Assembly (NCBI GenBank): GCA_951406725.2
Contig: OX597815.1
Span: 182,094,001-182,158,000, forward strand
Origin: Octopus vulgaris
Lineage: Eukaryota
Length of the DNA stretch: 64,000 nucleotides
Direction: 5' to 3'
Part shown: piece by piece, positions 16,051-38,350 of the stretch
How positions within the stretch are numbered: position 1 is the stretch's first letter
Layout of the letters: each line of letters begins with the position of its first letter
Notes under the pieces: model-generated
Told to the model about the DNA's origin: nothing
Databases searched by the model: none
What the model saw: the letters and a program-made list of their open reading frames with translations, nothing else
Translations under genes and position numbers: made by a program

Positions 16051-16280
16051 TAATAATAACAATAATAACAATATTAATAATAATAATAATAATAATAATA
16101 ACAACATTGAAAAATACCTTAGGAATGAGAACCCAGGTTCGAAATTTCCCCAAGACACCTGATGAAGGCTGGAGAGTACATTAGCCGAAATGTTGTGTTA
16201 ACAACAAACAAGATGAGGACAAATATCCATCAAATGTAAATAATGTACATAATTCCTCATCTCTTGAATATAGAACTGTA
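15701..16280. mobile_element. Family D palindrome, copy 2
   Basis: Left arm (minus: tail + head) and right arm (plus: tail) are long inverted repeats around (AAT)n. Confidence 0.9.
16154..16199 (+). ncRNA. Minimal type I hammerhead ribozyme (family D)
   Basis: GACAC-CTGATGA-A-GGCTG(gagagtacat)TAGCC-GAAA-TG-TT-GTGTT. Confidence 0.75.
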
Positions 16281-32099: not shown

Positions 32100-33400
32100 T
32101 ATAAACTTCCAACATTGTTATCATTTTCAAAATGACTGTAGAAATTTCATGGGTTGTGCTCGTGTTACTGACAGTAAGAAGGACTTCCTGGCACACACAA
32201 GACAAACTTAGAGAACTTGTAACAACTTGCAACAAGCTTTATAGCATCTGGCCATCAAGTGCTTCAAAGTCAACAAAGACTGCCTTTTTCAGGATATGCA
32301 GAGATAACATTTTTCTTTATGGTGCCAAAACCTGAACTATGAAGAAGATTTAAGATAATACACTTGACATCTCACTGGAGCTCCAAACATTTCATGGCAT
32401 AAGAAGAAGACCAAAAGAGAAATTTATGGAAATATACCACCCACCCACCCCTACAATTGTTGCTGCCATTCAAGAATTTGGACCTGGAGATCTCCATTTC
32501 CAGCGACTTCGAGGGCCACCTCCCAGTGATGTCGGGTGTCAATGAAGAGCCCTCGACTACAACAAGACGACCAAAGTTTTCTTTTTTTTCCAAGGTCTGA
32601 GGTCTCTCAGCCCTAAGCCCTAGACCATCACCTAATCACCCTTACCCGTCTTGTTGCTTAACAACAACAACAACAACAACAACAGCAGCAGCCATCCAAG
32701 AATTTGGACCTGGAGATCTCCATTTCCAGCGACTTTGAGGGCCACCTCCCAGTGATGTCAGGTGTCAATGAAGAGCCCTCGACTACAACAAGACGACCAA
32801 AGTTTTCTTTTTTTTCCAAGGTCTGAGGTCTCTCAGCCCTAAGCCCTAGACCATCACCTAATCACCCTTACCCATCTTGTTGCTTAACAACAACAACAAC
32901 AACAACAACAGCAGCAGCCATCCAAGAATTTGGACCTGGAGATCTCCATTTCCAGCGACTTCGAGGACTACCTCCCAGTGGTGTCGAGATTCAATGAAGA
33001 GCCCTCGACTACAACAAGACGACCAAAGTTTTCTTTTTTTTCCAAGGTCTGAGGTCTCTCAGCCCTAAGCCCTAGACCATCACCTAATCACCCTTACCCG
33101 TCTTATTGCTTAACAACAACAGCAGCCGCAGCCATCCAAGAATTTGGACCTAGAGATCTCCATTTCCAGCGACTTCGAGGGCCACCTCCCAGTGATGTCG
33201 GGTGTCAATGAAGAGTCCTCGACTACAACAAGATGACCAAAGTTTTCTTTTTTTTTTCCAAGGTCTGAGGTCTCCCGCCCCTAAGCCCTAAACCATCACC
33301 TAATCACCCTTACCCGTCTTGTTGCTTAACAACAACAACAGCAATTGTTGCTTAATGAAGGACAGCTTTTGTGAGCCACTTTATCATGCTGACCCCAATG
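32100..33400 (+). pseudogene. Highly decayed RTE-clade LINE ORF fragment, interrupted by a tandem array
   Basis: IWPSSASKSTKTAFFRICRDNIFLYGAKT*T resembles the RTE IW.S.....K..FF....SILLYG.ETWT motif. YGNIPP...TIVA continues across the array. Confidence 0.55.
32465..33341 (+). repeat. Four tandem ~215-226-bp structured units with (AAC)n tails, flanked by an 11-bp TSD
   Basis: Units start at 32465, 32691, 32917 and 33131. caattgttgct occurs at 32454-32464 and 33342-33352. Confidence 0.9.
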
Positions 33401-34753
33401 CTTTATTAGATGTTATACTTTAGGGGATTTCCACACTTTAATAGACAATAAAATATCATTCAATTTCTTTGATGGCATTGGTAAAGACACATGACATGAA
33501 ACAGAAGACATGTCAAAACTAAATTGGGGGAGAGCTCTGTGGTGCAGTTTGATGAAATTCATTATCAGATGAAGTCATTTGGAGAAAAAAGGTAATTCAT
33601 ATTTTTATGGAACAATTGATGCAAAACTCTTATATTAAATTTGTTCACATCCTCTTGCTGTAAAGTTAATAAATTTTAATCATTTGATACTACAGCAATT
33701 AGGATGATGATGATGATGATGATGATAATTCTCATATTTCTGTTTTCTTTATTTGTTTCCCTTATCAGTTGATAAGTATCATCATCATCATCATCATCGT
33801 TTAACGTCCGTTCTCCATGCTAGCATGGGTTAAAAGATTTAAATTAAAATCAATATTTGAGAAACAAATTACTAAATCTTGATCTACTTGAAATCAAGAA
33901 TAACCTTTAGCAATATGTTTAGTTATTAAATATTTTTCAAATATAAGTAACTGCCTAATGGAAAGAAGAAAAAAGAAATTGATCCTATTTATTTTTTGAA
34001 GCAAGCTTGAAGTATAAGATCTTATTTGGGTTTTGTTTATCAACAGGAAATTGATGCTGAAATTACTACCCAGGGAAATACATTTTATTATTATATATGA
34101 AATTTTATTAATATTTAAGAACATATTTTTTTTAGTATAAATGTTCTGCAGTAAATACATTACCTGATGGCAAAACCCATGCAATATAAAACTTACTTTA
34201 GTTGAATAAATAATTTATGTATTAATGTAGCTGTAGAAACTCTGCCAGATCAGATTGGAGTCTGGTGCAGCCATCTGGTTTGCCAGACCTCAGTCAAAAT
34301 CGTCCAACCCATGCTAGCATGGAAAGCGGACGTTAAACGATGATGATGATGATAATGTAGAGATATGTTTCTTTCCTTCATTGTCTTAACAAAGCAAAAA
34401 TAGGTTGGATTTTAAATGCATCACCTACATTTTGTGAAACAGAATTGTGCCAAGAATGGTTGTCATTTTTCACTGATAGCAAATAATTATCAAATTAATT
34501 ACCTACTTAATTTAGTAGCTATCATTTTATTTCTATAATATGGGAAAATTTCCCAGTGATAATTTCTGTTTGTAGAACTAATAGTTAAGTGGGGCTTAAC
34601 AAAATGTAGTGATGCCCCCTAAAGGTTTAATTAATTAACATTATACTTGTAATGAAGAGAAAATAAATTACTATGAATGATACTTTCTATCAAGAAAGAC
34701 TTGATTAACGACTCCCAAACAGTTTAAATTTGAACAACATAGTGCAGGAATAT

Positions 34754-35158
34754 AGATTATTTGCCAACATAATATGGCAGTCCTGATTTAGGACGAATGT
34801 TGCTGTAATTTAGCCCCAGGAGACATTGTCTTCAGCTGGCTATACAATATGATCTGTGTCCTTATATTTTCGAAGAAGGGAATCTAGTTGTCACTTTGAA
34901 AACAATATATTTCAAACAGGAATTTGACAATGCCACTTCTAGCCAAACAATTATTCTGTGCTGATGAAGGGAAATAACCCGGAAATCGTGATACACAGAT
35001 ATTGTTTTGAGCTGAGTGGAAGTGCTAGATTCCCTTGTTTGAAAATATAAGGACACAGATTATGTCATGCAGCCAGCTGGAGACGATGTCTCCTGGGGCT
35101 AAATTACAGCAACATACGTCCTAAACTAGGACTACCATGTTATGTTGGCAAATAATCT
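34754..35158. mobile_element. Fold-back element with ~134-bp inverted arms and a central hammerhead
   Basis: 34754-34887 is the imperfect reverse complement of 35025-35158. Confidence 0.9.
34955..34999 (+). ncRNA. Minimal type I hammerhead ribozyme
   Basis: TCTGTG-CTGATGA-A-GGG(aaataa)CCC-G-GAAA-TCGTGA-TA-CACAGA: perfect 6-bp stem I, intact core, near-palindromic ATCGTGAT stem III, AUA triplet. Confidence 0.85.
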
Positions 35159-35397
35159 TTACTACAAAGTACTGTTGCTGAATATCTCACGTCGTGAGAT
35201 TTAAAAATAGTAATTTTCTAATAGTGCAGGAAGATGTGAGTTTGAAGTAGCAAAGTAAGGTAATAATTTCATAGAAATTTTATTTGTATTATATCTGCTC
35301 AGCAAATTATTTGTTTTATTAGATTTACCAAAGAATAACTGAGAGGATATGTAAGCTCTGTCTGAAAAACTTTCACTGAGGCAGTAATTTAAAATAT

Positions 35398-36046
35398 TCC
35401 TTTCAGTTATAGGCACAAGGTCTGAAAGTTTAGGGAAAAGGGGCTAGTCAATGTAATCGACCCTAGTGCATGACTGGTACTTATTTCATTGACCCTGAAA
35501 GGATGAAAGGCAAAGTTGATCTCGGCAGAATTTGAAATCAGAACATAAAGACAGATGAAATGCTGCTAAGCATTTCACCTGGCTTGCTAACGTTTTGTAT
35601 TTCTTTATTGCACACAAGGGGCTAAACATAGAGGGGACAAACAAGGACAGACAAAGGGTTTAAGTCGATTACATCGACCCCAGTGCGTAACTGGCACTTA
35701 ATTTATCGACCCTGAAAGGATGAAAGGTAAAGTTGACCTCAGCAGAATTTGAACTCAGAACGTAAAGACAGATGAAATGCCGCTAAGCATTTCACCCGGC
35801 TTGCTAACGTTTTATATTTCTTTATTGCCCACAAGGGGCTAAACATAGAGGAGACAAACAAGGAGAGACAAAGGGATTAACTCGATTACATCGACCCCAG
35901 TGCGTAACTGGCACTTAACTTATCGACCCTGAAAGGATAAAAGGTAAAGTTGACCTCAGCAGAATTTGAACTCAGAATGTAAAGACAGACGAAATGCCAC
36001 TAAGTATTTTGTCTGGCATGCTAACAATCCTACCGTCTTACCACCT
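35398..36046 (-). mobile_element. SINE family B trimer
   Basis: Three tandem units with two different tail types. Confidence 0.85.
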
Positions 36047-36354
36047 CAGGATAATCTAAAATGATGACATTTGAGTGTTTCCACCAGTTTCCTTCTAAAT
36101 GAAGAAGAGTGTATGTTGGGGAAGGATAACTTATTTAATGTAGTAAGCCACACAACACTTTTAATTAATTAAAATTACACCTGTAATAAAGAGAAACACA
36201 TTTTTAATTAAGCTAATCTATTAAATACATCCACAGTGAAAAATTTCGTTAATATATCATATTCAGCCATTAATTCTAATTTTGTTGCATTTAGCTGACA
36301 GCATGTTACGGTTACTATAAAATGCAGTTTATCCTTTCTTGTTGTTGGGTTGTG

Positions 36355-36852
36355 TTGTGACCCTCTTCGGTCATGAATGACCATGAAAGTTACCCTCCGA
36401 GGCACAAGTTTGGGCAAAGTTGTTTATGGAAGACCAGCAGTCACCCATGCATACCAGCCTCCCCTCTCCATGCCACTGATGTTATCCAAGGGAAAGACAA
36501 AAGCCGATATAGCTTGGCACCAGTGATGTCGCAGCTCATTTATTAATGTACAAGTGGCTGAGCACTCCACAGACATGTGTACCCTTAATGTAGTTTTCAG
36601 GAGATTCAGCGTGATACAGAGTATGACAAGGATGGCCCTTTGAAAATACAGGTACAACAGAAACAGGAAGAAAGAGTGAGAGAAAGTTGTGGTGAAAGAG
36701 TACAGCAGGGTTCGCCACCACTCCCTGCTGGAGCCTCGTAGCTTTAGGTCTTTTTGCTCAATAAACACTCACAATGCCTGGCTTGGGAATTGAAACCGCG
36801 ATCCTACAACTGCGAGTCCGCTGCCCTAACCACTGGGCCATTGCACGTCCAC
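36355..36852 (-). mobile_element. Composite tRNA-derived SINE
   Basis: Minus head tggcccagtggttagggc...ggtttcaattccc (A/B-box-like). The middle is shared with family E, and the distal part with ~39735-39930. Confidence 0.7.
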
Positions 36853-36927
36853 TGTTTTTGGGTAGCTGACATCTAAATCAGTCACCCTCATTCATCCAGC
36901 GTTCTGAATAAGATGACTGTGTAGTAT

Positions 36928-37476
36928 ACTCTTTTACTCTTTTACTTGTTTCAGTCATTTGACTGCGGCCATGCTGGAGCACCGCCTTTAGTCGAGCAAA
37001 TAGACCCCAGGACTTATTCTTTGTAAGCCTAGTACTTATTCTAGTGGTCTCTCTTACCAAACTACTAAGTTATGGTGGCATACACACACCAACATCAGTT
37101 ATCAAGCGATGGTGGGGGAACAAACACAGGCACACAAACACACATACACACACACACATCCACATACACAAACACAAACACACACATCCACACACACACA
37201 CACATCCACACACACACACACATCCACACGCACAAACACAAACACACACCACACACACACAAACACAACCCCCCCCCACACACACATATATATATGACAG
37301 GCTTCTTTCAGCTTCCGTCTACCAAATCCCCTCACAAGGCTTTAGTTGGCCTGAGGCTATAGTAGAAGACACTTGTCCAAGGTGCCATTGCGTGGAACCT
37401 TGGGCAAGTCTCTTCTACTATATGAACACTGAACCACGTGGCTGGTAAACAAGCTACTTACCACACAGCCACTCCT
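36928..37476 (-). mobile_element. SINE family A with internal fold-back
   Basis: Consensus match; inverted duplication at ~37360-37420. Confidence 0.85.
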
Positions 37477-37834: not shown

Positions 37835-38350
37835 TGAGGTCTGATCAAAATGTATTGAGCTTGTTGCTATGGTAACTGAGCTAAAATATGCAGAGTGAAG
37901 CCAGTTGGCACAAATTGACCTTCAACTCTGTTATGCATGTGCATTGAGTTGTAATGTTCTCACTTTCGTCTGTTGTTTATAGCAGTGCTTGGAAGTGTGT
38001 AGGATGTGGTCATTTCTATTTCTTTACTACCCACAAGGGGCTAAACACAGAGGAGATAAACAAGGACAGACAAAGGGATTAAGTTGATTACATCGACCCC
38101 AGTGCGTAACTGGTACTTATTTAATTGATCCCGAAAGGATGAAAGGCGAAGTCGACCTCGGCGGAATTTGAACTCAGAATGTAACGGCAGACGAAATATG
38201 GCTACGCATTTCGCCCGGCGTGGTAGCGTTTCTGCCAGCTTGCAGCCTTGTGGTCATTTCGCCACACCACAGAGGTTTCCTCAGTGACTATGGCAGAGAA
38301 TTGAGCAGAGAATCTGCATCAAATTTTGCCAAAAGCTTGGTGATACTTGC
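37835..38350 (+). mobile_element. Mariner 5' fragment (second family) interrupted by SINE B (38017-38248)
   Basis: ta|tgaggtctgatcaaaa end and peptide EQRICIKFCQKLGDTC at ~38300-38350. SINE TSD tgtggtcatttc at 38005-38016 / 38249-38260. Confidence 0.7.

Follow-up and report, generated by a model that had tools for sequence, protein, structure and literature searches.

The window, a 64,000-nucleotide stretch of Octopus vulgaris contig OX597815.1, carries at 34751-35220 a 470-bp insertion that is flanked by target-site duplications (TSDs) and derived from an ORF-less 352-nt hammerhead unit, in layout a non-LTR retrozyme, for whose copying in trans a Penelope-like RT/GIY-YIG protein was probably responsible. 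The unit, its ends, its TSDs, the junction that closes it on itself and its conservation are directly established. Judged by its sequence features, the family would be classed as a non-LTR retrozyme whose copies appear to insert in the manner of a Penelope-like element (PLE), and as neither an autonomous PLE nor a MITE. The result bears on which enzyme moves animal retrozymes and on how Penelope elements make inverted, one-tailed insertions.

On both sides the insertion is bordered by the perfect 12-bp TSD ATAGTGCAGGAA, with the same letters at 34739-34750 and 35221-35232. Comparison with the unit identifies the left part (34751-34887, minus strand) as an inverted 5'-truncated copy, about m154 to m290, whose outer end is the 'short' 3' end; it is joined head to head to a near-complete sense copy (34884-35220, plus strand, m13 to about m349; 88% to the natural monomer L051:1514-1865), with CTAG at 34884-34887 as a 4-nt microhomology common to both segments. 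The right arm (35025-35161, plus strand) is the complement of the left arm and contains AGCC..GGCT and TGCCA..TGGCA hairpins that, from arm pairing and alignment, are kept in two sister families. Beyond it a 59-nt tail (35162-35220, plus strand; hairpin at 35184-35200), delimited by the sequence and by the ends of family members, leads from the short to the long 3' end and is present at one end only. The inverted arms claimed in the preliminary description, at about 134 bp, are real (137 nt each, 88% complementary); its statement that there was no obvious TSD was mistaken, the duplication lying further out because the element extends 59 nt beyond the right arm, to about 35220.

The sense copy contains a type I hammerhead motif (34955-34999, plus strand), recognised by motif layout and family comparison and predicted to be active. 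Stem I has 6 bp (TCTGTG/CACAGA, 34955-60/34994-99), the core consists of CTGATGA (34961-67) and GAAA (34982-85), and stem III, ATCGTGAT at 34985-92, is near-palindromic, the cut being predicted after A34993. Stem II has only 3 bp (GGG/CCC, 34969-71/34978-80) and a closing mismatch, A34968.G34981. A minimum free energy fold predicts a long imperfect stem prolonging stem I, with approximate limits at 34907-35048 (plus strand), in several pairs of which both partners differ from one sister family to another. The motif had been described as a clean hammerhead, which is apt for its type I layout, stem I and core but not for stem II, nor was it matched in Rfam, where a scan of 33000-37000 reported no hammerhead family at E<=10. 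A relaxed motif scan gave one match in the window and three over 30 shuffled windows; the motif match by itself is therefore modest evidence only, and conservation in the family matters more. Genome-wide, a CpG-tolerant form of the hammerhead has 281 matches (reversed control 0) and the fully intact form 30 (control 0). Among 88 family motifs the commonest stem III is ATCGCGAT (21/88), followed by three of its CpG-type variants, and stem III of the window copy is, as first proposed, one CpG-type change from this palindrome. Position 10.1 is A in 87 of the 88 motifs, and 11.1 is G in 56 and A in 32; hammerheads usually carry G10.1-C11.1 at this place, and the A.G closing mismatch of stem II is the ancestral state of the family. 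For the stem III duplex, the predicted energy is -3.4 kcal/mol in the window copy versus -10.1 for the intact palindrome, and since CpG decay weakens this stem, the window copy is probably a dead passenger.

Counted by exact motif matches across the 2.8-Gb assembly, the family comprises hundreds to thousands of short copies: a 33-nt arm motif has 837 exact matches (control 0), and a whole-element search returned 3031 first-look candidates, 40 of which were scored. Copies have a median identity of 94% to their own majority sequence and show strong CpG decay, so that the burst was not recent. Insertion structure was analysed in 90 loci picked by the 3' motif only, the first 100 of the 837 matches (contigs C1-C2) representing 91 separate insertions, of which 90 were used; from an earlier sample the duplicate loci L022, L025, L050 and L052 were removed before counting. 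Seventy of the 90 loci are inverted pairs, with an inverted 5'-truncated copy beside a sense copy, and 20 have a single orientation; arm length ranges from 31 to 648 nt. Outer ends cluster at unit position ~292 (short) or ~350 (long), and where both ends are canonical (60 loci) they are almost always one of each: 57 short+long, 2 long+long and 1 short+short (p=3e-14 versus 50:50). TSDs of 9-18 bp (mode 13) without a motif exceed the threshold (score>=8; 0/90 in the mismatched-flank controls that served as null) in 40 of the 90 loci and fall below it in 50. A second sample of 30 loci, picked only by an intact hammerhead, contains 24 inverted loci, short+long ends in 18 of 18 and 8 TSDs above threshold; the three samples have a few loci in common, and their counts are not summed. 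An overlap of a few bases, such as the CTAG of the window copy, is common at inversion junctions, by a BLAST-level estimate without a null.

Being short, numerous and provided with long inverted arms, these copies might be taken for a MITE that a DNA transposase mobilises and whose cargo is the hammerhead. We give this reading practically no credence: the arms vary widely in length, one of them is kept from being terminal by a tail beyond it, the TSDs vary in length without a motif, and a copy without an inverted arm was found at 20 of the 90 loci. MITE identity was accordingly rejected on the variable arms and variable TSDs, and the initial judgement that this is not a true MITE and that its architecture is of Penelope type has stood; variable arm length had been proposed as the mark of a Penelope-like origin, and together with the variable TSD and the tail on one end it is what the copies show.

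Retrotransposition of the unit by a LINE-type enzyme, with inversions arising from twin priming as in L1, would also be conceivable, since LINE target-primed insertion gives variable TSDs and junction microhomology, as observed here. In L1 twin priming, however, the two halves do not overlap, whereas the halves of the octopus copies overlap in unit coordinates; there is no poly(A) or simple-repeat tail, and the outer ends are both 3' ends and lie at two fixed sites within the unit. Such a two-site start corresponds instead to the result obtained with the Anolis PLE, which as a purified protein nicks both strands and extends them, starting at two internal RNA sites bounding the tail, on an uncleaved RNA template (PMC11167929), and a LINE origin appears very unlikely.

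The combination of an inverted truncated copy, a one-sided tail and a TSD matches the published signature of PLE insertions, namely an inverted truncated copy, a tail on one end and a TSD of 8-10 bp (PMC3846280, PMC8557442). With the insertion units of EN+ PLEs the octopus copies have in common the inverted 5'-truncated copy, the tail on one end, a variable TSD and two 3' end points preceded by a hammerhead, but the octopus unit has no attached RT/EN ORF and closes on itself (PMC3846280, PMC8557442, PMC11167929). The dimensions also differ, the tail being ~58 nt here versus the 30-40 bp described for PLEs and the TSD 9-18 versus 8-10 bp (PMC3846280, PMC8557442).

Because this footprint equals that of autonomous PLEs (PMC3846280, PMC8557442), the copies could instead be 5'-truncated pLTR stubs of such an element, the 352-nt unit then being a partial-tandem artefact of a fixed RNA 5' end. 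This would also be the origin implied by the first proposal of a Penelope pLTR plus its inverted copy, whose architectural part is upheld by the inverted copies and whose pLTR part finds no support in the way in which the unit begins. The 3' tail continues straight into the stretch that precedes the hammerhead, with a base-exact junction found 100 times (control 0) and traversed within single arms by 29 segments of the 90-locus sample. What stands before 56 distinct unit starts, taken from loci not chosen on the junction, is the tail of the unit itself in 50 cases, an inversion junction in 6 and foreign DNA in 0. Element-adjacent flanks of the 90 loci share one 62-bp match and nothing more. 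Natural tandems give a unit length of 352 nt, with the longest run at ~2.6 units and no long tandem array among the examined copies. The unit has no ORF (longest stop-free frame 72 codons), has a low GC content, and is more stable as a circular fold than shuffles (z=-6.3).

Nor did a homologous pLTR come to light among candidate partners. The genome carries many RT+GIY-YIG ORFs, and a GIY-YIG scan gave 148 matches from the 150 scored of 6136 candidates, a coverage that leaves some room for the stub reading. No attached homologue of the unit and no homologous pLTR was found at 40 GIY-YIG loci (30 loci and 10 longer stretches), and comparison of three PLE 3' ends with the three units of this and the sister families remained at shuffle level (z between -1.3 and 1.3). 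Two loci considered as unit-bearing partners, L077 and L093, were discarded, their weak matches being separate insertions of sister families. A young Penelope-like family (L089-L092) has two overlapping ORFs, one of ~330-380 aa without a Pfam match and then one of 781 aa with RT+GIY-YIG, as well as a 456-bp pLTR with a U3.A8 hammerhead-like motif; the ends of L089 and L091 lie in (TA)n. The adjoining RT/GIY-YIG ORF that was to be sought in longer copies did not appear, as no copy in the sample joins an ORF. Because of this, and because no autonomous partner was found, the element is best called a non-LTR retrozyme rather than a pLTR stub, and we consider the stub reading improbable. It is from the insertion footprint that we infer a mobilising PLE protein.

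Two sister families of ORF-less hammerhead units were found beside GIY-YIG loci: family 2 (L099-L118), with a unit of ~357 nt and 3023 first-look candidates, and family 3 (L239-L254), with a unit of ~360 nt and 2772 first-look candidates. Both are homologous to the family of the window copy (family 1) along the whole length (z=18 and 32, respectively), and their units are equally closed on themselves, which again argues against stubs, and often inverted. Family 3 has short and long ends like family 1 and a stem II in which every base is paired; it is young (97% between copies), and its copies frequently end in (TA)n. In both sister families, compensatory changes preserve stem I and leave stem III palindromic: stem I reads CACACG/CGTGTG in family 2 and CTGCA/TGCAG in family 3, with both sides changed, and stem III is palindromic throughout (ATCGCGAT in family 1, ACTCGAGT in family 2, ACATGT in family 3). 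In family 3 the core pair C3.G8 is replaced by U3.A8. Both-sided change affects 19 of 56 consensus pairs, a count that comes from three lineages and hence reflects few independent events. Positions 10.1/11.1 are A.G, C.A and A-U across the three families, and this pair is therefore relaxed in the lineage. Family conservation, together with this covariation, makes up the case for a candidate hammerhead ribozyme. Family 3 is the better bench target, offering a 360-nt RNA for cleavage, circularisation and two-site priming in the existing PLE assay.

With animal non-LTR retrozymes the octopus family shares the type I hammerhead, the ORF-less head-to-tail unit of 150-450 bp (350-390 bp in mussel), the low GC content, a TSD of more than 4 bp and a strongly self-paired fold (PMC7229834). 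In axolotl HHR_Amex2, too, helix II is mismatched at its base, and yet this retrozyme hammerhead cleaves as a dimer (PMC7229834). Animal retrozymes, however, are described as tandem repeats with abundant circular RNA, whereas octopus copies are mostly dispersed, inverted partial units with a one-sided tail, and the word 'inverted' occurs 0 times in the main text of that report (PMC7229834). The minimal hammerheads of PLEs likewise have a palindromic helix III for dimer cleavage and include the U3-A8 core variant seen in family 3, but the octopus motif differs from them in a short stem II lacking the conserved G10.1-C11.1 and in a stem I of 6 bp that is prolonged by a long extension (PMC4209133). 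Opposite-strand hammerhead pairs 100-700 bp apart are described in Schistosoma by the same source (PMC4209133). A Xenopus preprint, in which 1/9 dimers cleaved, also concludes that PLEs mobilise retrozymes; it bases this on co-occurrence and pLTR homology, whereas here the argument comes from the insertion footprint, pLTR homology not having been found in the 40 GIY-YIG loci (bioRxiv 10.64898/2026.07.22.740005). Nowhere does the text of that preprint use the word 'tail'.

Enzyme, two-site priming, cleavage and circles are what we infer from this record. A Penelope-like enzyme would nick both DNA strands ~9-18 bp apart, and each nick would prime reverse transcription on uncleaved multimeric or circular RNA, one start being internal (~292) and the other ~58 nt further 3' (~350). 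The two cDNAs would end at variable points and be joined head to head, often via a few bases of microhomology, and such a two-nick, two-start process would account for the fold-back with its tail on one side and for the TSD. A dimer paired through the palindromic stem III is the predicted working form of the hammerhead, which would cut multimers to monomers that may circularise. Arms that traverse the predicted cut site (45 of 124) fit an uncleaved or circular template, which requires them. No pile-up of genomic 5' ends was seen at the predicted cut, where only 5 of 124 arms begin (m118-122) versus 15 at m151-159, although the absence of a genomic 5'-end or read-end peak at the cut is no test of cleavage chemistry. 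In the hammerhead-selected loci (L119-L148), many arms have their 5' end between unit positions 63 and 89, shortly before stem I, a cluster partly forced by selection on the hammerhead and by the self-complementary stem. More tentatively, and less likely than not, a dimeric Penelope protein might integrate ribozyme-made RNA circles, with the two target strands primed from different, fixed sites of a single circle, so that the short-plus-long pairing would record an asymmetric step. If so, ORF-less circles would be minimal natural substrates defining the PLE cis-signal, with no sequence in common with any of the partner pLTRs found to date.

Transcription was surveyed in three raw cDNA runs (X21-X23, ~12 million records each, library selection unspecified) aligned to the natural dimer L038:1430-2210. 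Between 1611 and 2068 reads per run fall on the dimer, most of them less than 95% alike, and 63-71% continue into other, flanking sequence; read depth is low over the unit junction and the hammerhead, and read ends do not pile up at the cut. The reads resemble read-through from numerous copies scattered over the genome, and they fit the presence of circles as well as their absence. On the same dimer, A>G differences occur at 41, 32 and 41 places versus T>C at 8, 12 and 11 (X21-X23), the corresponding figures in a contig run being 14 and 10; this excess could be due to A-to-I editing of fold-back transcripts or to variants of a few expressed copies.

Already in print are retrozymes (PMC7229834), the PLE tail and inversion (PMC3846280, PMC8557442, PMC11167929), opposite-strand hammerhead pairs (PMC4209133) and the retrozyme-PLE link (bioRxiv 10.64898/2026.07.22.740005). 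New here are an ORF-less closed unit bearing the full PLE footprint, with counts, and insertion-site evidence for the retrozyme-PLE link. The literature searched yielded no paper on a cephalopod retrozyme or on PLE derivatives misfiled as MITEs, but the family could already have an entry in Repbase or Dfam. The short copies form a large natural data set in which a Penelope footprint on an ORF-less retrozyme, with its one-short-one-long rule, can be quantified. For annotation, retrozyme searches based on tandem repeats would miss most such copies, and a strict MITE caller might skip the window copy because its right arm is not terminal and its TSD is 12 bp.

Other repeats lie in the same window. 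Three copies of another repeat, at 16159 (+), 21472 (+) and 29496 (-), carry a minimal-type hammerhead motif with an extra A, a 5-bp stem II and an AACGTT palindrome; an (AAT)n microsatellite precedes each copy, and the copies are decayed to unequal degrees. At 32442-33333, a 226-nt unit with CAA runs is present in four tandem copies, in which the relaxed scan found no hammerhead. A common dispersed repeat forms three tandem 217-nt copies at 35446-36096, with a fourth at 38082-38298.
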